From Promethearchaeota archaeon (lineage in GTDB: Archaea; Asgardarchaeota; Hermodarchaeia; Hermodarchaeales; Hermodarchaeaceae): DNA of 64,000 bases. The notes beneath the pieces are model-generated. The model had not been told where the DNA came from. It saw nothing but the letters and a program-made list of their open reading frames with translations, and searched no databases. Positions 18,831 through 31,251 of this stretch are shown here, piece after piece. Every line of letters starts with the position of its first letter. The first letter of the stretch is position 1. Location: the NCBI GenBank assembly GCA_048938385.1, contig JBHLMG010000001.1, positions 1 to 64,000 of the forward strand. Reading direction: 5' to 3'. The translations under genes were made by a program, and so were the position numbers.

Positions 18831-19407
18831 GTGTTCTGACCACCCATGGTCTGGTCCCTGCTCTCCGCGTCTCTTCTAGTGTGGCTTGTTCACAAAGATA
18901 AAAGTGTGACGGTGTGAATAGGCATAGGCGTCAAGGCCCCTTTTACCTGAAAACCGCTTGTATCTTGCGAATTCAACACTATTGATATTTTTAGACAATT
19001 CGTTTTGAACGCATATTTTATAGCGTTCTTTAACCTTATTTTTCCATTTAAAGCATTATTTCCAATTATTTACGGTTTTAAGGCGTTGTTCACTGAATAT
19101 ATGTATATCAGGGTCCTATGACCCTTAAGAACCAAGTTGCAGTGGAAATAAAGGGGTCAATACTTGTTCACAATATAATTAGAACTATTGATGATATATT
19201 TTTAAAAATTAAGGTATTTGGGACCTTTTTCATGAATACTTATTCACATTATTGGCGCCAATTGTGAACGAATGAACACAATTTTTTAGGCGATTTTCGA
19301 GCTTCTCATGAATTCTACGAAACTCTAATATGTGTGAGGTGACAACCTCCATGCGAAATTCTAGTGTTTCGTTTCCAGTACTGCTGCTGATTTGGAGGAA
19401 AAAACAC

Positions 19408-20643
19408 ATGGACGACCCTCGCCCACTCGACAGAATTTTTGAAAGACTCAGCACTGGCCCTGATTTGATTCGCGACCGAAAGGTACTCTGGCACTCCTAT
19501 GTACCTGATGAGCTACCGCATCGTGAAGAGCAAATCACTCAAATTGGAAGTATATTAGCAACCGGGTTGAGAGGTAGCCGTCCTTCAAATGTGTTTGTAT
19601 ACGGAAAACCAGGAACAGGCAAGACTGCTGTGACTCGGTATGTGCTTCGTGAATTGACAGCGAAGTTTGGAGAAATGCAGTTACCATTTAAGGCAGTATA
19701 TTTGAATTGTCGAAATGTGGACACAGATTATCGTGTGCTTGCAAGAATCTGTGCAGAACTAGGCCAAAAAGTTCCATTTACAGGGTTGCCAACTGATGAA
19801 GTGCATTCACGCCTGGTGGAATTACTGGAAACTCAAGATTTGTTGACAATTATCGTCTTAGACGAAATAGATCGATTAGTGCTAAAAAGCGGCGATGATA
19901 CCCTTTACAAACTGACGCGAATCAACTACGAATTGACTAATGGGCGCGTCAGCTTGATTGGCATTTCGAACGACCTACGGTTTCCGGAGTATTTGGATCC
20001 ACGCGTATTGAGTAGCCTTAGTGAAGAGAAGGTAATTTTTCATCCATATACTGCCCTGCAGTTGCAGGATATTCTTCGCCGACGAAGTTCACATGGGCTT
20101 AAAGATGGGATATTAGAAGAACCAGGAGTGATCAATCTCTGTGCAGCATTGGCTGCAAGAGAGGAAGGTGACGCTCGCCGGGCTCTCGACCTTCTTCGGG
20201 TAGCAGTTGAAGTTGCTGAACGCGAAGGAAGTGAAGAGATTAAAGTAGAACATGTTGAGAAGGCACGGTTAAGTATTGAACGGGACACAGTTTTAGAAGT
20301 ATTGCGTACTCTTCCGCTCCAGCAAAAACTCGTATTGTATGCTGTATACTCATTGGAGCAACATAAGCATCCCCATCCTGTTACTGGCGAAGTTCAAGAT
20401 GTTTATGGCGACTTCTGTGAACAACTCGGTATGGATCCTCTCACTCAACGGCGTGTTAGTGATCTAATAAACGATCTTGATGCTATCGGGTTGGTCAACG
20501 CTAAGGTCGTGAGTAAGGGGCGTTATGGAAGAACAAAGATAATCCGATTAAGCGTTCCTAAGAAAATGGTCGCTGAAGTGCTCGAACGCGAACGGCGAAT
20601 TAAGAGTCTATCCAGTTATGTTCCGAAACAACCAGGCAAATAA
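19408..20643 (+). CDS. cdc6: Orc1/Cdc6 replication initiator (origin-linked)
   Basis: LPHREEQI, GKPGTGKT, VLDEID, GDARRAL and SKGRYGRT motifs; SD GGAGG before ATG 19408. Confidence 0.97.
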   Translation: MDDPRPLDRIFERLSTGPDLIRDRKVLWHSYVPDELPHREEQITQIGSILATGLRGSRPSNVFVYGKPGTGKTAVTRYVLRELTAKFGEMQLPFKAVYLNCRNVDTDYRVLARICAELGQKVPFTGLPTDEVHSRLVELLETQDLLTIIVLDEIDRLVLKSGDDTLYKLTRINYELTNGRVSLIGISNDLRFPEYLDPRVLSSLSEEKVIFHPYTALQLQDILRRRSSHGLKDGILEEPGVINLCAALAAREEGDARRALDLLRVAVEVAEREGSEEIKVEHVEKARLSIERDTVLEVLRTLPLQQKLVLYAVYSLEQHKHPHPVTGEVQDVYGDFCEQLGMDPLTQRRVSDLINDLDAIGLVNAKVVSKGRYGRTKIIRLSVPKKMVAEVLERERRIKSLSSYVPKQPGK

Positions 20644-20663: not shown

Positions 20664-21242
20664 GTGTTTAGCATCCCACGAAACCCCAATGGATTAATAC
20701 AGTACGCGTTTCGTGCACTCGGAAAAGATTCCGTTTTCCTTAGAGATCTAGTTTTTTTCATTTCATTCGATTTACGGCAAATGCCGCCTTCCCGTGTCCA
20801 TAAGCTTATTCAAAAGCTTAACTCCGCAGGCCATTTACTCATTGAGGATGGTCTAGTTCAGCTAAGCTCTAGCTTCAGCTCTGAATCTGATGTTACACCT
20901 CCTGCAGCAACTGCAGTTTTGGGTGAAATGTTACGACAATTCATCAGCTCATCTAGATTAACCCGCGCTGTCGGGATGGATGACCAATCGATTCGTTTTG
21001 TCCAGACATCACAACCGCCATTAAAGATTGAAGCAACAGTGTATGGTTCACAAGAGTATCGCCTTGTCATTGATGAGGCGAAAAAACGGATCGAACACAA
21101 CTGTCCGGACTGGAAACGAGTAAGCGTTGTACACCGCTTCTGCAAGCACGTTGCTAAGTTGGTGCTATTACTTAAAAAGGAAGATGCCCTGCGCCTTCTT
21201 TCGAGCTTACAAGAAGGCTCCTGGGAGTTTGTATCCCTTTAG
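20664..21242 (+). CDS. DUF2240-like protein with SWIM-type zinc finger
   Basis: HNCPDW...FCKH motif. Confidence 0.65.
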   Translation: MFSIPRNPNGLIQYAFRALGKDSVFLRDLVFFISFDLRQMPPSRVHKLIQKLNSAGHLLIEDGLVQLSSSFSSESDVTPPAATAVLGEMLRQFISSSRLTRAVGMDDQSIRFVQTSQPPLKIEATVYGSQEYRLVIDEAKKRIEHNCPDWKRVSVVHRFCKHVAKLVLLLKKEDALRLLSSLQEGSWEFVSL

Positions 21243-22780
21243 ACAAAGTATAGCTGTTTTACATTTAGTGTCTGAAGATTAACTAAAGGAATAATTCCTG
21301 GTGTGGGTTCAATTCCAATTAAGCGCTGGTAGTCAGTTTGGCTTTGAAAGGTTCCTGAATTGATAATTAGTGTTTTACGATAACTGCTCAGAGTGGTTAC
21401 ATGAATATGCCCGCAGTGAAGGATATCGGGGACATCATCGATTACTAACCAGTCGCGAGGTTCAGCAACAATGGTTGTACCTTTACCATAAATAGGGGCG
21501 AGGTGACGGCCCTGAAGCATCGTTCGCATGGCCGCAAAACCTGCTTCAACCTCGGGTTTTGAAAGTGCCCCCATGATATCGACTAGGCTATCACCATGAA
21601 ACAATAGGAGTTTAACTCCACTAAGACTGATTTGCGAAGGACATCCTAGCGAGGTGATTTGTAACCCTGAATCCCTAAGTGGATCGAAAAAGTAGTCATC
21701 TATTGCAGGTCGTGGAATGGCCGTTCGGACGCCATCATGATTCCCAGGTGTGATGATGAGACTAATGTGGCTAGGAATTTCTTGAAGAATTTTATTAAGC
21801 CCTTGAAACTGACCGTTCAGATCATAAATCGTGATATCAGCGAGCTGGTTTGGATAGATACCAATACCATCGACAAGGTCACCATTTATGATGATGTATT
21901 TGACAGTACCTGCTAATTCAATGTGTTCTTTATCGCCCTCTTCACCTTTGAGCCATTCAATTACACGGTGGAAGACTTTATCGAGGAAATGCTTACTTCC
22001 AAAATGAATGTCAGATAACAACAATGCACTGATATTTTCCTTAGCCCGATTGTTCCGTCGGGTTGTTGGAATGTCTGGTAAGAATAGATCTTTGGCAATA
22101 ATCATTTCAGAACTAACTATGGCTCCTTCAACACAGACGACCTGATCTAGCAAAACTATTCGGGCTTTAGAAAGCAGTTGTGTGTCGTGTTGTTGGATGA
22201 TACAGTTGATTTTACCTGTGGGGTCCTCTAACTCCAAAGATATATTGCCGCTTCTAGTTTGCAGTTTCGTTGTGACAATTCCTACTATTTTTACAGTTGG
22301 TTTTGCTTCAGTTGCTTTCCTTGTGCTCATTCGTGCTTGGTCAATATCGACTACCCCTTTTCCATCAACCCGTTGTGTAATAATATGACGTAAGCGGTAG
22401 TAGCGGTCTTGAAATGTCTGGTGGAAGTCTTCTATGGTACCGGTGCCTTGCATTTCCGATGTTGGGTCTTTTAAAATTTGAATATCAGGTTTCACATTTT
22501 CTGCAATAGCTGTTGAAGATGTTAGTTGAGGTGTCTTGACTTCTTGTGAGATCGGTTCATCTAGCGATGGTGATCGTTGTTCCTTTTTAAAATCGATAAA
22601 GTGGGTAGGCTCAAGCACAGGAATTTCAGCAGGGTGGACTTTTTCTGCTTTAAGAAATGCGTCGATAAATTGATCTGGGTAGGGGTGTTCCTTGAGAACA
22701 TCTACAGCTTGTGGACTGATTTGAAATCCCGCCTTTAGGAGTCGTGTGATTGCAGTTTGGACTTTATCGTCTGGATGCAC
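21239..22780 (-). CDS. polB: DNA polymerase D small (exonuclease) subunit DP1
   Basis: OB fold LEDPTG; SDIHFGS, GDLVDG, PGNHD, FHG, RHLAP and GHIH calcineurin-like motifs. Confidence 0.95.
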   Translation of the reverse strand: MHPDDKVQTAITRLLKAGFQISPQAVDVLKEHPYPDQFIDAFLKAEKVHPAEIPVLEPTHFIDFKKEQRSPSLDEPISQEVKTPQLTSSTAIAENVKPDIQILKDPTSEMQGTGTIEDFHQTFQDRYYRLRHIITQRVDGKGVVDIDQARMSTRKATEAKPTVKIVGIVTTKLQTRSGNISLELEDPTGKINCIIQQHDTQLLSKARIVLLDQVVCVEGAIVSSEMIIAKDLFLPDIPTTRRNNRAKENISALLLSDIHFGSKHFLDKVFHRVIEWLKGEEGDKEHIELAGTVKYIIINGDLVDGIGIYPNQLADITIYDLNGQFQGLNKILQEIPSHISLIITPGNHDGVRTAIPRPAIDDYFFDPLRDSGLQITSLGCPSQISLSGVKLLLFHGDSLVDIMGALSKPEVEAGFAAMRTMLQGRHLAPIYGKGTTIVAEPRDWLVIDDVPDILHCGHIHVTTLSSYRKTLIINSGTFQSQTDYQRLIGIEPTPGIIPLVNLQTLNVKQLYFV

Positions 22781-22866: not shown

Positions 22867-22964
22867 TGGCGCGGAGTAAGGGATTTGAACCCTTGCGACC
22901 ACGAAGGTCACTGGATAGCTCGTTCAAACTCGAGTCCAGCGCGTTACCGCTCTGCCAACTCCGC
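22867..22964 (-). tRNA. tRNA-Ser(CGA) with 12-nt intron (22917-22928) at 37/38
   Basis: Long variable arm, G73, encoded CCA; BHB helix CTCG/CGAG. Confidence 0.95.
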
Positions 22965-23079: not shown

Positions 23080-23928
23080 TTGGTATCTTCGAAGGATGTA
23101 GCAGCAATTCAACATAAGTATAAAATCATTGGACGAAAAGAGCTTATCACCCAGTGTCTAGCCTCGGATAACGCAGGGAAACACATTCTCATCGAAGGGC
23201 CAGTGGGTGTTGGGAAAACGACCATTGCTTCAGCCTTTGCTGATTTCTTAGGTCGTTCGCTTCTCCGTGTTGATGGTGACGAACGGTATACATCGGCTAA
23301 GCTTGTTGGATGGTTTGATCCACCGGTTGTTCTAAAGCATGGTTACACTCGGGAATCCTTCATTCCGGGTCCATTAGTCGAGACCATGGAGTCTGGAGGG
23401 GTGTTGTTCATTAACGAAATCAATCGAATGCCGGAAGCTACGCAGAACACTTTACTCCCGGTCATGGATGAAGGGCGCCTGCATGTGCCGAAATTGGGGA
23501 CGATTAACTCTAAGAACGGGTTCCGAATAATTGCGACACAAAATCCTGAAGCTAGTGTTGGGGTCACTCCGCTAGGCGAAGCATTGCGCGACCGTTACAT
23601 TTGGTTGCATTTGGATTACCATTCTGAGCCTGAAGAACAGGAAATCGTGAAAATAAACACAGGCATTAACGATGAAAGCATCGTTGATACGGCAGTGGCA
23701 ATTACACGCGCAACTCGTGATTACATTGATGTTCGCCGTGGGGCTAGCGTCCGGGGGGCAATTGATATGGCTAGCCTGTATGTCGAACTTCCTGGGGAGG
23801 GAAAAAGTGTCTGGGAACAAGCAGCGATTATGTCTTTAGTTCCTAAAATCGAATTACATGATAATGTGCAGAAATCTGCATCTGATGTAATTAAGATAAT
23901 TGTAAAATCAGTACTTGCAAATTTCTAA
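23080..23928 (+). CDS. MoxR-family AAA+ ATPase
   Basis: GPVGVGKT, LFINEINR, IATQNP, EALRDR and ASVRG motifs. Confidence 0.92.
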   Translation: MVSSKDVAAIQHKYKIIGRKELITQCLASDNAGKHILIEGPVGVGKTTIASAFADFLGRSLLRVDGDERYTSAKLVGWFDPPVVLKHGYTRESFIPGPLVETMESGGVLFINEINRMPEATQNTLLPVMDEGRLHVPKLGTINSKNGFRIIATQNPEASVGVTPLGEALRDRYIWLHLDYHSEPEEQEIVKINTGINDESIVDTAVAITRATRDYIDVRRGASVRGAIDMASLYVELPGEGKSVWEQAAIMSLVPKIELHDNVQKSASDVIKIIVKSVLANF

Positions 23929-23951
23929 TCTCCGAGGAGGAAGCGTCCTCC
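23919..23951 (+). promoter_or_regulatory. Putative -1 programmed ribosomal frameshift signal
   Basis: Slippery heptamer A_AAT_TTC 23919-23925 directly before the TAA stop; hairpin GGAGGA-agcg-TCCTCC 23936-23951; -1 frame open into the VWA ORF. Confidence 0.7.
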
Positions 23952-24089
23952 GATGACCGAGTCTCTGTTCTGCTCTCAGGTTCTCTATCCGATGAGAAAC
24001 TCTTCGAATCGGAAATTCGCGCGCACGGACGTGATTTTCAATATTTTCTGCGTTTAGGGCGAACCTTTGATTATCCAAAGGCAAAGGAG

Positions 24090-25001
24090 ATGGCTGAACT
24101 TGCTATCGAGCATGAAAATATTACAGCGCTCCAAGCGTTAGCTCATCTTCAACCAATTGCGACTAGTGAAGCGCTTTCTTCGCAAGATGGGGTCCATCTT
24201 ATCGCTAGATCTGCTCGAGAAGGAAATGTCGCTGCACCACTGCTCTTCTTCCAATTACGTCGGCAGATAAGTGGGCAATATAGACAAACCTTCCGTGAAC
24301 TGGCTCGGGCCACCATTATCCATTCAGCGCTACGGATTAGCGGTCGTGGACTAAGACCTGAAACCATCAATACAACCCCATTTTCTCCAGGGCTAGACGA
24401 GTTTGATTTAGAATCTACCCTTGAAGAAATCCTGATGGAGCCCCAATATGTCAACTACCCAGATATCGTGGGGATCGAACGCGTTGCTCGCAAAAAGATT
24501 GGTACAATAATTTTAGACACTTCAGGATCTATGGCTGGTGAAAAGCTCTTAACCGCCGCTACAGCAGCCGCTGTAGCTGCCTTCCATTTACGCCACGATA
24601 AATACGCCCTAATCGCATTCAATACGGTGGCTAGTACCATCAAAACCATGGAACAAAAAGCTACAATCGACTATATCGTTGACACGATTTTAGATACTGA
24701 ACCTGCAGGATACACTAACATAACCGATGGCCTTCAGACCGGATACAATCAGTATCGGCGAATTCCACGACAGGAATCCTGGGCGATTCTGATCACCGAT
24801 GGCATTGCAAACCGTGGAGGTCCACCCGAGGACCATGCACGGAGGTACCACAATCTCCATGTATTACAAACACCAGGCACGCATCCTCAAGGCGAAGAAA
24901 CCTGTCAACGCATTGCACAACTAGGGCGAGGGCGCCACATAAAGGTCAAATCCTACACAGAAGTACCACGAGCGCTCATGCAGCTACTGCGTCACACATA
25001 A
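24090..25001 (+). CDS. VWA-domain protein (frame open upstream to about 23895; probably also made as a MoxR fusion)
   Basis: MIDAS DTSGSM, GYTNITDGL and LITDG motifs. Confidence 0.9.
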   Translation: MAELAIEHENITALQALAHLQPIATSEALSSQDGVHLIARSAREGNVAAPLLFFQLRRQISGQYRQTFRELARATIIHSALRISGRGLRPETINTTPFSPGLDEFDLESTLEEILMEPQYVNYPDIVGIERVARKKIGTIILDTSGSMAGEKLLTAATAAAVAAFHLRHDKYALIAFNTVASTIKTMEQKATIDYIVDTILDTEPAGYTNITDGLQTGYNQYRRIPRQESWAILITDGIANRGGPPEDHARRYHNLHVLQTPGTHPQGEETCQRIAQLGRGRHIKVKSYTEVPRALMQLLRHT

Positions 25002-25681: not shown

Positions 25682-27433
25682 ATGGAGAAATACCAAAAGG
25701 AACTCTCATCCATGACAATCAAACAGACAGACAGCCAGAATTCGGTATCATCCCCTAACAAAATCACAGCTCTACAACTATTTAATGAAATAGCAAAAAA
25801 GATCCAAAAAATTCTGGGTTCTAACCCCTTTGGCAACTACTCACAAATTCGTTGGATTAGCACACCATTAGAACTCAAGGGACCACGCTTTGGTGCTCAC
25901 GAAACCTACATTAACAATCAACCGGTTCTCAACCTCTCCAAAGATCTAATCACCAAACACGAAAATCTCCTCGAAGCCGTCTTGTGGCGAGAAGCTTATC
26001 TCCTACATCTACCGGAATCAGTTCGCGCTGTGAACCGTGCTGCTGACCTCGGACTCTACTGTTACTACCGTCATGGACTCAAAACACGAAAACAACGGCA
26101 ACGATTCATCCAGATATGGGAAGCCTCGTCTCCACCAATCCAATATGCCTTCTACCGCTACTTCCCAACAGGTGGCTTTGCTTATTTTGATAAAATTGTC
26201 GATGGTACTTTCTTGAAACTTGTCAAACAGTGGTTCACACCCTTCAAACAACTACAAACTCCCTTAACTGTAGAAGCCTATACCTCAAACCTTGAACGAT
26301 GGATGATGAATTACCACAGAATCTTAAAATCCATTGAACTCAAAGTACTACAAGGGCTTTATAACCACCCTTCTGCGTCACAAACTGAACTGGCCGAAAA
26401 GCTTGGTCTTAAACAACCCACAGTTAGTCGAATTATCAAAGTTCTTGCAGAAAAGCATTTTTTACGTTTATCCACAATAGAAAATTTCCCTGTTCTTGGT
26501 TTACAACCACTTGCTGTTGAATTTTCAACTCCAAATAACCAAATTCTAAATAAGTTAAAAAGAATTGCCAGTGAAATTCGCTACACTCTAGCAATTCACG
26601 AATTTGAAAATCTAATAAGAATTGTTTTTGTAATACCATTTAGGCGAACAGAGCGCTTTAGACAATGGGTAAAACAAACCAGTAGCGTGTTGGATTTACC
26701 TGCTTCAAGAATTCTCCAATTAGTCGAATGGTCGGTCTCAAGAAATTTCAACCTTTATCAACCACAGAATAAAGGTTGGTCTTTAGATTTCAGCGCAATA
26801 TTAAGTAGTATACAACGACTTCTCAATGAAGATTGGACGCAACAATTACCCCCAATACGATCATTCAGTTTTTCGCGCATAAAATCCAATCAATATGTAC
26901 TTCTGCGTCCAGAAGATTTTATCTACATCCAAAGGGCTTCGGACGCGTTTCTAGTCACTAGTCGGGCGAAATTCTATGAAGCTGAAGAGGCACGGAAAGC
27001 TGGATCAAGTGATTTAACTTATCGACGCCGTGTGGCATATTTACAACGAAGAAAGGTGATTAGCCCACCTTTGGCTATTGGTTTACTACACATTGGTTTA
27101 GATGGCCTTGTGTCTCTTTTGATTAGAAGTTCTCATAGTGAAGCTCATAATTTACTTAGGTCATTACAGCTCCTTCCTCATGTTTCTGGGACCATTTTTG
27201 AAGATGGAAGCCTAGATGTTACTTTGTTGCTTCCAAAGGAAGTAGCTGTTTCAGTTGAGGCATCCCTACGCGCAATATTAACTGATTATGGAAGAGAAAT
27301 ACTTTCAACAGTAAAACCCGCTTGGGAAGCTTATGGCTGGGTTGCCCGTCCTCCTGTTGTAGCTAGAAATTATGATTTCAGTAACGGAAACTGGATTTGG
27401 CTAAAAGACACTCTTCCGCGTGTTTCGTTTTAA
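25682..27433 (+). CDS. Large HTH plus Lrp/AsnC-fold repeat protein, paralog 1
   Basis: Central HTH ASQTELAEKLGLKQPTVSR; two Lrp-like halves each ending NYDF/NFNL-x-GxW. Confidence 0.75.
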   Translation: MEKYQKELSSMTIKQTDSQNSVSSPNKITALQLFNEIAKKIQKILGSNPFGNYSQIRWISTPLELKGPRFGAHETYINNQPVLNLSKDLITKHENLLEAVLWREAYLLHLPESVRAVNRAADLGLYCYYRHGLKTRKQRQRFIQIWEASSPPIQYAFYRYFPTGGFAYFDKIVDGTFLKLVKQWFTPFKQLQTPLTVEAYTSNLERWMMNYHRILKSIELKVLQGLYNHPSASQTELAEKLGLKQPTVSRIIKVLAEKHFLRLSTIENFPVLGLQPLAVEFSTPNNQILNKLKRIASEIRYTLAIHEFENLIRIVFVIPFRRTERFRQWVKQTSSVLDLPASRILQLVEWSVSRNFNLYQPQNKGWSLDFSAILSSIQRLLNEDWTQQLPPIRSFSFSRIKSNQYVLLRPEDFIYIQRASDAFLVTSRAKFYEAEEARKAGSSDLTYRRRVAYLQRRKVISPPLAIGLLHIGLDGLVSLLIRSSHSEAHNLLRSLQLLPHVSGTIFEDGSLDVTLLLPKEVAVSVEASLRAILTDYGREILSTVKPAWEAYGWVARPPVVARNYDFSNGNWIWLKDTLPRVSF

Positions 27434-27856: not shown

Positions 27857-29578
27857 ATGGATGGGATCTCAATAGCAACTGGTGCTTTGGAGTTGGCGCA
27901 TAGGGTTCGTCGGGTACAGGCTCAGCTGGAGTCCATCTTAGGCTTGGAATGGTTGCCCCGTCCGCAAGATCGGATACAAGGCGTTACTTGGGGGTCGGTG
28001 CCCTTGGTGTGGAACACCCCGCGGTTTGGAGTGAAGGAATCATTAGTTTCAGATCGTCCACGGGGTGGATGGCAAGTGACGATTGCCGAGGCGTTGCAGG
28101 AGGAGCCGGACCATGTATTATCATGGGTGATATGGCGGGAGTCGTTCCTCACCTTTCTACTACCACATCTACGCCACATTCCTGAAGTTGCTGATTTAGG
28201 GCTTTATGCTGGATTGAAGCATGGTAATTTTTCATCCAACCAAGATGCAGAATTAAAGGTGCTATGGCAGCATGTGTCGGTCCCCCAGCACCATGTGCAC
28301 TACATCTATGATGCGCCTTATGGGTTTCCTCTGTTCGACCAAGTCGTAGATGGGGGCTTTCTAACGCGGGTTGTGACCTGGTTGAATGGCTTCCGTACTA
28401 GTGCTGTGGCACCATTAACTTCGACGACATACACAGCGGCCCTGGAGCAGTGGATGCTGGAGACCCACATTCCATTAACTGTAAATGAGGTCCGCATTCT
28501 ATCTGTGCTCGCTCGCACCACTCATTTCAAGCAAACGGAATTAGCCCAACAACTCGACATGCTCCCCTCTGCTCTCAGTCCGGCGCTCACGAAGCTTGCG
28601 CAACGCCACATCCTACGCTTGTACAATTTCACTAATCTCCCTAAAATCGGGCTCATCCCCTTCGAGGTTTTGCTTCGAATTAGTAATTCGAAAAAGCGAT
28701 CAAAATGGATTGATTTGTTGAGTACCGCACGTTATGCATACTCTATTACAACAATGCAACAAGACTGGATCCTTGGAAGGTTGCTCATTCCATTTGATCG
28801 CGTTAACGATCTTCAACAATGGGTTGAAGACCTTTCAACAAACGAAGAAATCACATTAGTATCTCTGTTTAAAGTCACCGAATTGGTAGATTATTGGAAC
28901 TTCGGTTCCTATATGCCTGGGGTCGGTTGGGTTGATGATTTCTCCCTTATTCTGGAACAAACCCGATCGTTACTCTACAATTTGAAATCTAAACCAATAG
29001 AGAAGTTTATCTCAAAGTATACTTACGATTATGATACAGCTCGTGAGAATATATTTGAATTGCGGGTTGAAGACTTTATTTATTTTCGGAGAGCAATCGA
29101 CATCGTTTTCACAACGGATCGTATTTCACCGCAGCTTTCTCAAGAAATCCGAAATGCGGGCCTCTCCGATTCAGCATACCGGAGACGAGTACAAAAGCTC
29201 GAAGAACAGGACATTAGCACCATTGGGCGGTTGTGGTTACTTCATATCGGGCTCGATACAGTTATACAGCTCCTTTTATTTGAACCCATAGAAACAGTGA
29301 CTAGCTTCATACAGGCAATGCGTACTTTTCCCTATATTACTGGTTCAATATACGAAAGGGGGAATGGAAGGCTCAGGGTTTTTGTTCCTAACTTACAGGC
29401 TGTGGAGGTTCTCTCCTTCTTACAGAAACTAGCTATTGATCTTGAAATGGGTGTACTAATTGAAGCTCAGCCCTTTTGGAAAGCCGTTACGGGGCTTCAG
29501 GATCCTGTTAAAGAATCAAATTATGACTTCAATGTGGGAACTTGGAAGTGGGATGAAGCCAGTCTTCCCAAAATATAA
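27857..29578 (+). CDS. Large HTH plus Lrp/AsnC-fold repeat protein, paralog 2
   Basis: Shares WRE, ADLGLY, FDxxVDG, LExWM, QTELA, EDFIY, YRRRV, LHIGLD and NYDFxxGxWxW with paralog 1. Confidence 0.75.
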   Translation: MDGISIATGALELAHRVRRVQAQLESILGLEWLPRPQDRIQGVTWGSVPLVWNTPRFGVKESLVSDRPRGGWQVTIAEALQEEPDHVLSWVIWRESFLTFLLPHLRHIPEVADLGLYAGLKHGNFSSNQDAELKVLWQHVSVPQHHVHYIYDAPYGFPLFDQVVDGGFLTRVVTWLNGFRTSAVAPLTSTTYTAALEQWMLETHIPLTVNEVRILSVLARTTHFKQTELAQQLDMLPSALSPALTKLAQRHILRLYNFTNLPKIGLIPFEVLLRISNSKKRSKWIDLLSTARYAYSITTMQQDWILGRLLIPFDRVNDLQQWVEDLSTNEEITLVSLFKVTELVDYWNFGSYMPGVGWVDDFSLILEQTRSLLYNLKSKPIEKFISKYTYDYDTARENIFELRVEDFIYFRRAIDIVFTTDRISPQLSQEIRNAGLSDSAYRRRVQKLEEQDISTIGRLWLLHIGLDTVIQLLLFEPIETVTSFIQAMRTFPYITGSIYERGNGRLRVFVPNLQAVEVLSFLQKLAIDLEMGVLIEAQPFWKAVTGLQDPVKESNYDFNVGTWKWDEASLPKI

Positions 29579-30015: not shown

Positions 30016-31251
30016 ATGGAGATCATTCGGCACGAGTTGAAACGCCCGTCGGTGTTCGTCAATGAAGCGAAGCTCTCAATCGACTATGTTCCACCGAACC
30101 TGCCCCATCGTGAGGAACACCTACGCAAGTTAACTCAATTGTTTCGCGGGGTCATCGAAGCCCCAGGTCGCGTATCCCAAAAGGCGCTCATCATAGGAGA
30201 CACTGGGTCAGGGAAAACCTCCGTGGCCAAGCTGTTTGGCAAGTTCATTACCGATGTCGCTCAGAGCCACGGGATAAGACTAATCTATGTGCATGTGAAT
30301 GCACGACGCGAACGCACCGAATATATGATTTTGAACAGAATTGCCGGTGCACTGCAACCGGGCCTTCCATTGCGGGGCTTGTCCACACAAGAGCTTCTTG
30401 CCATCATATTAGATTACATCGAAGCTAACGATGTGTACTTGCTAGTAACGCTCGATGAGCTCGGCGTCTTCCTTAAACGCCAAGGCGAAGAGCTGCTCTA
30501 TCTGCTCTCGCGCACCGTTGATGACCAACTTAACGCCCAACAACGCATCTCCTTGATTGGAATCAGCCGAACCCCGCTCTTCGGGTACATCCTCGATCCG
30601 AGTACTTGGAGTACCTTGCAAAAGAATCTAATCCAGTTCAACCGCTATGACTCCCGTCAACTGCGGGATATTCTCACCTTTCGTATTAAAGACGCTTTTC
30701 TCGATGGCGCCGTTCCAGCCAGTACCCTAGACCTCATCGCCGACATCGCAGGAACCTTTGGGGATGCACGTTACGCCTTGGAACTGCTCTACAACGCAGG
30801 CAAAATGGCCGACGAGAAGGGGGTGCTGCGGATCTTGCCTGAGTATGTACGCAGTGCCAAAGCCTTCATTACGCCCGAAGTACGGCGCGAAGTACTCCAT
30901 GACCTGTCCCTCCATCAAAAACTCCTCCTATTGGCGGTCTGCCGTGTACTCAAACCGTCTGAGGATGCCTATGCGACCATGGGGGAAGTCGAAACACGAT
31001 ATGGACTAGTTAGTGAAGAGTACGGACACACTCCCCGGTCACATACCCAAGTCTGGTCTTATGTGCAGGAACTCGTGGGATTAGGAATTCTTACCTCAAA
31101 AATTTCTGGCGAGGGGCAGCGTGGGAAAACAACGCTAATCGGGCTTCCTGATATTCCCGCAGAAGCCTTAGAGAGTGAACTTGAACTCCACATCAACAAC
31201 AAACGGCGAGGTGCTACGCATGATCGACGGTTCAGATACCGCTATGCTTGA
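30016..31251 (+). CDS. cdc6: Second Orc1/Cdc6 paralog
   Basis: LPHREE, GDTGSGKT, TLDE, GDARYALELL and GQRGKTT motifs. Confidence 0.93.
   Translation: MEIIRHELKRPSVFVNEAKLSIDYVPPNLPHREEHLRKLTQLFRGVIEAPGRVSQKALIIGDTGSGKTSVAKLFGKFITDVAQSHGIRLIYVHVNARRERTEYMILNRIAGALQPGLPLRGLSTQELLAIILDYIEANDVYLLVTLDELGVFLKRQGEELLYLLSRTVDDQLNAQQRISLIGISRTPLFGYILDPSTWSTLQKNLIQFNRYDSRQLRDILTFRIKDAFLDGAVPASTLDLIADIAGTFGDARYALELLYNAGKMADEKGVLRILPEYVRSAKAFITPEVRREVLHDLSLHQKLLLLAVCRVLKPSEDAYATMGEVETRYGLVSEEYGHTPRSHTQVWSYVQELVGLGILTSKISGEGQRGKTTLIGLPDIPAEALESELELHINNKRRGATHDRRFRYRYA

Follow-up and report, generated by a model that had tools for sequence, protein, structure and literature searches.

Comparative evidence for probable programmed −1 frameshifting between a MoxR/NorQ-like ATPase and a VWA domain in Asgard archaea and Hadarchaeota

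How might a VWA-domain protein be made from a reading frame that has no evident place to start? The question is raised by a locus in a 64,000-nucleotide (nt) stretch of DNA (hereafter the window; positions 1 to 64,000 of contig JBHLMG010000001.1, assembly GCA_048938385.1) from a Promethearchaeota archaeon of the class Hermodarchaeia, the host assembly of which is 2.48 Mb and 90% complete. Here, an open reading frame (ORF) for an AAA_5 ATPase of the MoxR/NorQ type, with TTG 23080 as its sole canonical start downstream of the preceding stop, ends in GCA AAT TTC TAA. A VWA domain is encoded in the −1 frame, which stays open from 23895 to 25001 and whose earliest ATG, GTG or TTG in the window is at 24090. 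A first-pass annotation of this DNA proposed that −1 frameshifting at the heptamer A_AAT_TTC yields both an ATPase and an ATPase–VWA fusion; the ORF end, the heptamer, a hairpin beyond it, the open −1 frame and the first start codon at 24090 that it described are each present in the sequence (Table 1). The predicted product of a −1 slip would carry the junction peptide ...SVLANF-LISEEEASSDDR (…SVLANF-LISEEEASSDD…), and the trans-frame junction peptide of this locus can also be given as SVLANFLISEEEASSDDR. On comparing orthologous loci, we consider it highly probable that the ATPase and VWA ORFs form a single recoded gene whose expression involves programmed −1 ribosomal frameshifting.

Because the heptamer and the hairpin are within chance expectation in this single sequence, significance can come only from comparative data. 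The ortholog set comprised 80 distinct loci after removal of duplicates, from Hermod-, Loki-, Hod-, Sif-, Borr- and Odin-labelled Asgard metagenome-assembled genomes and from Hadarchaeota; some of them came from scanning one genome per species with a VWA-family profile, without requiring the junction motif. The motif N_RAT_TTY is kept at all 80 loci, as GGATTTT (47), AAATTTT (19), AGATTTT (6), AAATTTC (4), GGATTTC (2), CGATTTT (1) and GAATTTT (1). A perfect A_AAT_TTY or G_GAT_TTY is found in 72 of the 80 orthologs, and the heptamer of the window has the X_XXY_YYZ form. The zero-frame stop follows the heptamer directly at 31 loci, after one codon at 48 and after two codons at 1. The Asn or Asp codon within the heptamer is NAT at 80 of 80 loci, against a background of 73% in the same ORFs. 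Moreover, the preceding base tracks the first base of this codon: G stands before GAT at 49 of 56 loci, across 10 different amino acids (background of third-position G, 14%), and A stands before AAT at 23 of 24. In a maximum-likelihood tree of concatenated proteins, the A_AAT and G_GAT classes swap at least about four times, for example between the sister loci L019 and L024. The aligned sequences thus indicate that the heptamer is conserved at the nucleotide level beyond the needs of the protein. Its base covariation is what a need for the P-site tRNA to re-pair after slipping back by one base would produce, and for this pattern protein constraint offers no explanation. The orthologs share the heptamer, as the first-pass proposal would require, and its first base in addition co-varies with its second. 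G_GAU_UUU is itself a working −1 heptamer of eukaryotic RNA viruses (for example, PMC4737148).

The same covariation bears on a mechanism in which RNA polymerase, and not the ribosome, slips on the T-run, so that some mRNAs gain one base and the fusion comes into frame. A short T-run does lie at the site and reaches T5 in many orthologs, an Asgard in-frame fusion (L109, described below) has T7 at the equivalent spot, and the chlD family contains long A-runs that permit slippage of this kind (PMC3711429). However, the window has only T3 and most loci T4, compared with the at least 8 nt (A >7, T >8) given in PMC3711429; the co-variation of heptamer positions 1 and 2 fits tRNA re-pairing instead; and a downstream hairpin is a stimulator of ribosomal slippage. 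We therefore regard transcriptional slippage as very improbable.

The phase of the two ORFs is conserved as well. The relative frame is −1 in 80 of 80 distinct loci and varies in none. A six-frame search of 40 relatives returned matches that begin at residues 1–16 of the −1 ORF; among relatives, the VWA lies in the −1 frame at 27 of 27 loci, and the ATPase ends in ...RAT TTY with a stop at most two codons on. Likewise, the VWA ORF is at −1 phase at 63 of 63 archaeal loci for which the upstream ORF could be seen, and almost every one of the 80 loci has an orthologous open frame of 354–379 codons that starts from the heptamer (two contigs end early). In independent assemblies of further runs from the same study (X2, at a depth of 47, and X4), contigs are identical to the window over 23600–24400, with 0 substitutions and 0 indels; among the sequencing runs listed as containing this DNA, none was an RNA run. 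A one-base assembly error, which the first-pass annotation had named as a danger to its proposal, is excluded, because the independent contigs are identical, with no indel at the junction, and 80 independent assemblies share the phase. The wider possibility of either such an error or a recent pseudogenizing frameshift in a once-fused gene can appeal to the existence of homologs in which the fusion is in frame. Against it stand the identical phase and motif in 80 distinct assemblies over deep branches, purifying selection on both ORFs and the identity of the independent contigs, and we consider its probability to be close to negligible.

The 161 nt without a start codon, which would otherwise be a gap between two genes, evolve as protein. 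Over the 55 codons past the junction in 14 loci of the genus, variable sites number 20, 12 and 46 at the first, second and third codon positions of the −1 frame, and pairwise differences number 660, 307 and 2268. The post-junction region also aligns across families and across the phylum; columns G18 and I30 are conserved in it, as is the motif LLExEI..GR..YY.KL. An AlphaFold2 model of the −1 product (mean predicted local distance difference test score (pLDDT), 83.8) has residues 1–17 disordered, followed by helices at residues 22–32, 37–44 and 49–61 with pLDDT values of 85–95. Met55, encoded by the ATG at 24090, lies inside the third helix, and a start there would therefore remove part of a folded domain; according to the model, this ATG is an internal Met and not an N-terminus. 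Taken together, the codon-position bias, the phylum-wide alignment and the confidently predicted helices bear out the proposal that the linker (23929–24089) is conserved as protein.

The lack of a start codon extends beyond the window. For 180 nt (60 codons) past the heptamer, the −1 frame is devoid of ATG, GTG and TTG at 22 loci or more. At the position of a putative TTG start, the window reads CTA and other loci read TTA, TTG, CTA, CGT or TCA, and no initiation codon is conserved in the alignment. These data bear most directly on a two-gene arrangement, in which the VWA protein is translated alone, by termination–reinitiation or from a non-canonical start, and no fusion is made. A 4-nt stop/start overlap would likewise place the downstream frame at −1, approximately 14 loci have a TTG that overlaps TGA and is called as the start (P0001, MITEE...; P0003, MIEG...), and the predicted disorder of the first 17 post-junction residues means that the fold leaves the N-terminus unfixed. 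The starts that this arrangement would use are the TTG inside TTTTGA at some loci and ATC, ATA, CTA or CTG at others, and none of them is conserved. In addition, two separate genes would leave unexplained the invariant NAT with its tracking third-position base (A_AAT/G_GAT, 10 amino acids) and the covarying hairpin just 3′ of the stop. Two separately translated genes are thus improbable in our view, if less so than slippage by the polymerase, and one recoded gene remains the preferred reading.

The hairpin, GGAGGA-AGCG-TCCTCC, has 6 base pairs, starts 10 nt 3′ of the heptamer and is present in the centroid structure. Across 23 Hermod-type and related loci, including those of Hadarchaeota, 89% of cells pair, five of the six pairs show double changes and none of 500 shuffles match this; the variants include GGAGG/CCTCC, GGAAA/TTTCC, GGAGAT/ATCTCC and GGGGG/CCCCC. 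The suggestion that the hairpin would be conserved together with the heptamer thus holds in part: the stem covaries in Hermod-type, Hadarchaeota and related loci, but is weak in Loki-type loci.

Several observations weigh against programmed frameshifting. Related loci share ancestry, and the counts given above consequently overstate their independence. The heptamer departs from the perfect form at eight of the 80 loci (A_GAT, C_GAT or G_AAT). AAATTTC occurs 18 times in the window compared with 27.6 expected, such that the heptamer alone is within chance. The hairpin region, as a single sequence, folds no differently from shuffled sequences (z = 0.11), and its 10-nt spacer exceeds the 5–9 nt usual for −1 signals. 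Across 45 Loki-type loci, RNAalifold gives only the weak and mostly invariant stem UCUCU/AGAGA, with little covariation. Finally, loci that read TTT TGA have a TTG overlapping the stop, a possible coupled start that gene callers use (P0001).

The Loki-type loci have a feature of their own. Their consensus (45 loci) is G GAT TTT CAA TAA TCG ATG ATT TCT C, in which the block TAA TCG ATG ATT TCT C, about 10–30 nt past the heptamer (alignment columns 11–26), is near-invariant across all 45 (L042–L093). Even the synonymous positions of the −1 codons ATC GAT GAT TTC are near-invariant, and dual coding offers no explanation for this because the block sits beyond the zero-frame stop. The pattern suggests an RNA-level element, perhaps a stimulator other than the simple hairpin of the window.

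We also searched for natural in-frame fusions, as the first-pass annotation had advised, and found them: distant homologs of 614–711 amino acids (aa) carry AAA_5 and VWA in a single frame. A conceptual trans-frame product, built for alignment only, is colinear with these natural fusions in the order lid end of the ATPase, variable linker, helical domain and VWA domain, with …VKSVLANF at the lid end aligned to …VTSVLKDY and …LLSNSDFF. One of them, P0030 (L109:1501–3636), is a 711-aa AAA_5–VWA fusion that retains G GAT TTT within a T7 run (TCG GAT TTT TTT CGT). Its contig also encodes CDC48, Rpo11, an ESCRT-II-type EAP30, SecE and Spt5, and is assigned to Asgard archaea because of the EAP30 gene. 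This fusion, seen on one contig, is either a natural fused variant or the result of an error in homopolymer length.

Long single frames are also found among paralogs. Five genomes (G037, G032, G026, G016 and G018) encode distant paralogs (25–28% identity) with single open frames of 637–869 aa across the VWA match, and in at least three of them (G016, G026 and G032) a frameshifted locus and a long-frame paralog are both present.

What kind of machine do the two ORFs encode? The ATPase has a Walker A motif (GPVGVGKT, 23197–23220) and a Walker B motif (LFINEINR, 23404–23427), and belongs to the MoxR class (Pfam AAA_5, 87.5 bits, 1.1e-24; AAA_3, 61.2 bits); its best per-domain matches in the PDB are MoxR (2r44) and NorQ (9qh4), at 48–49 bits. 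In the VWA domain, D197, S199, S201, T263 and D291 are invariant across the aligned orthologs, leaving the metal-ion-dependent adhesion site (MIDAS) intact. The top Foldseek matches of the VWA model (9qh8_G, 9qh6_G and 9qhd_G) are the NorD VWA in NorQD complexes, at a low sequence identity to NorD of 16–19%. Of the 858 relatives that an exhaustive profile-free search returned for the VWA protein, only 46 are closer than E = 1e-30, which marks the orthologous family as narrow.

Two other identities were considered and rejected. A chelatase subunit is disfavoured by TIGR02442 scores of 30.1 and 34.6 bits where the cut-off is 779, by a TIGR02031 score of 28 against 499.6 and by a Pfam Mg_chelatase match of 23.9 bits that is a fragment at profile positions 19–46 only; furthermore, CobN/ChlH (PF02514) was not found in the host genome (89.8% complete), whereas control genomes were positive. 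A specific kinship with midasin is apparent only in a total score of 139 bits (E 1e-39), which is a sum over six AAA domains of which the best single domain gives 41 bits, no nearer than NorQ or MoxR at 48–49 bits. The VWA profile has no sequence match to the midasin MIDAS, and in structural comparison the Rea1 MIDAS ranks 27th.

From the comparative data, we infer that the −1 slip occurs at the ribosome and that both products are made. In the mechanism that we propose, when a ribosome on the ATPase ORF arrives at A_AAU_UUC, tRNA-Asn would occupy the P site and tRNA-Phe the A site. The majority of ribosomes would terminate at the adjoining UAA to release the free 282-aa ATPase. A fraction would slip back by one base, re-pairing from AAU to AAA and from UUC to UUU, with help from the GGAGGA/UCCUCC hairpin that lies 10 nt further on and perhaps also from the adjacent stop. 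The shifted ribosomes would go on to make a less abundant fusion of about 640 aa, consisting of the ATPase, the acidic linker, the helical domain and the VWA/MIDAS domain, which could join the free ATPase in a MoxR-type hexamer with few tethered VWA adaptors. By analogy with NorQ6–NorD1 (PMC13036017) and with frameshifted chlD (fs-chlD; PMC3711429, PMC9227772), the fusion probably co-assembles with the free subunits. The shift might then set the ratio of the two kinds of subunit in the ring, as the first-pass annotation supposed.

A more ambitious and tentative extension, which we hold to be possible but rather doubtful, is that a cellular −1 signal with a virus-type heptamer, spacer and hairpin, Asgard-wide and shared with Hadarchaeota, doses a MoxR-type ring to about one tethered MIDAS/VWA per hexamer. 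Were this true, the logic of six AAA modules to one MIDAS seen in midasin and in NorQ6–NorD1 would have been reached by other means, the locus would rank among the best-supported archaeal recoding events, and it would provide a natural reporter of frameshifting for the ribosomes that are nearest to the eukaryotic ones.

Table 1. Features of the ATPase–VWA locus, in coordinates of the window
Feature	Position	Strand	Basis
Zero-frame MoxR/NorQ-like AAA_5 ATPase ORF, 282 aa	23080..23928	+	Pfam AAA_5 1.1e-24
Slippery heptamer A_AAT_TTC (X_XXY_YYZ); proposed tandem −1 tRNA slippage (Asn/Phe)	23919..23925	+	Sequence; N_RAT_TTY at 80/80 loci
Zero-frame stop TAA abutting the heptamer; terminates the free ATPase	23926..23928	+	Sequence
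−1 frame as read after the slip (CTA at 23925) through to the stop at 24999-25001: linker, helical domain and VWA	23925..25001	+	
Acidic linker ISEEEASSDDRVSVLLS, predicted disordered; aligned to variable linkers in the natural in-frame fusions	23928..23978	+	pLDDT <50 for residues 1-17
Hairpin GGAGGA-AGCG-TCCTCC, candidate frameshift stimulator	23936..23951	+	Centroid structure; covariation
Predicted helices H22-32, H37-44 and first half of H49-61, 5′ of the sole canonical start	23991..24089	+	pLDDT 85-95
ATG chosen by gene callers, within helix H49-61; predicted internal Met	24090..24092	+	
VWA domain with intact MIDAS (DTSGS at 24516-24530, T263, D291)	24498..24998	+	Pfam VWA_2 1.3e-9

Replication genes cluster around the locus in the window, with orc1/cdc6 (19330–20643), a DUF2240 gene (20664–21242) and the PolD small subunit with its oligonucleotide-binding (OB) fold (21239–22780, minus strand) on one side and a second cdc6-like gene (30016–31251) on the other. 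Between the VWA ORF and the latter lie two ORFs that are paralogs of each other, each about 580 aa long and with a MarR-type helix-turn-helix (25682–27433 and 27857–29578). A 95-nt tRNA gene (22870–22964, minus strand; Rfam, 47 bits), which probably bears an intron, stands about 115 nt 5′ of the ATPase start and points in the opposite direction. No nor or rubisco client gene is present among the neighbours in the window, and none of these neighbours hints at a client of the ATPase. Similarly, no neighbouring gene is conserved across the approximately 52 wider loci compared; the most frequent arrangements noted are a Ras-family small GTPase 3′ of the VWA on the same strand (14 of the loci, for example, L041:2781–3440 and L061:225–1478) and MoeA 5′ of the ATPase (14 of the loci). 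At one Hadarchaeota locus (L082, 1485–1494), the gene before the ATPase ends in TTG GAT TTC TAG with the ATPase frame at −1; we set this second junction aside as a coincidence, because that ATPase has an ATG of its own some 40 nt further on.

The reading also bears on annotation. Gene callers truncate the VWA protein or assign spurious starts to it in essentially all of the genomes examined, and the predicted ATPase–VWA fusion product is absent from protein databases. Conservation of the site over deep Asgard divergence, together with base patterns that point to tRNA re-pairing, makes it a strong candidate for recoding studies in the archaea closest to eukaryotes.

Among archaeal cellular genes, a 2021 review counted fucA1 of Sulfolobus (Saccharolobus) solfataricus as the sole demonstrated −1 frameshift, with the methanococcal chlD cases as predictions (PMC8211752), and we found no report of an Asgard or Lokiarchaeota site, or of a MoxR/VWA site, in open-access papers and bioRxiv. 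The fucA1 gene resembles the Asgard locus in being an archaeal cellular gene with a zero-frame and a −1 ORF, a heptamer and a putative stem–loop (PMC1616953; PMC8211752). However, its site is strain-specific and reads A_AAA_AAT, and the shift only restores one enzyme, whereas the Asgard site is conserved across the phylum and its zero-frame product is itself a complete protein.

The closest solved relatives are NorQ–NorD and, with them, CbbQ–CbbO, which are MoxR AAA+/VWA pairs with an intact MIDAS (PMC9976466, PMC13036017). NorQD pairs a hexamer of NorQ with a single NorD, and the contact is made by a finger in the central pore (PMC13036017). NorQ and NorD differ from the Asgard pair in that they are separate polypeptides, each with its own start codon. 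Midasin (Rea1/Mdn1) shares with the predicted Asgard product its AAA_5 modules, an acidic linker, a C-terminal MIDAS and, as proposed for the Asgard ring, a count of six AAA modules per MIDAS, but it strings six AAA modules in tandem where the Asgard ATPase has a single one; the resemblance is an architectural analogy only.

The nearest precedent for the coding strategy is fs-chlD, in which one locus gives a short zero-frame AAA+ ATPase and a −1 AAA+–linker–VWA protein (PMC3711429; PMC9227772). As in the Asgard case, these loci are annotated as two adjacent genes, have fused homologs and are found in archaea as well as bacteria, and the Asgard product resembles a chelatase subunit in carrying a C-terminal VWA with a MIDAS behind an acidic linker. 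The two differ in that the Asgard ATPase is AAA_5/MoxR–NorQ-like and not of the ChlI type, and in that its slip site is A_AAU_UUY or G_GAU_UUU with a hairpin, where that of chlD is a poly-A run. The comparison with chlD drawn in the first-pass annotation is therefore apt as an analogy, but the Asgard gene is no member of the chlD family, its scores lying far under the cut-offs. What the locus presents is a probable chlD-like −1 frameshift giving AAA+ and AAA+–VWA subunits, with an AAA+ family and a slip motif that differ from those of chlD and in a host lineage of special interest. The principle known from chlD, by which two subunits of an AAA+/VWA machine come from one gene, would thereby extend to the MoxR/NorQ branch, which suggests that frameshifting is a recurrent means of coupling and dosing AAA+ motors and MIDAS adaptors.

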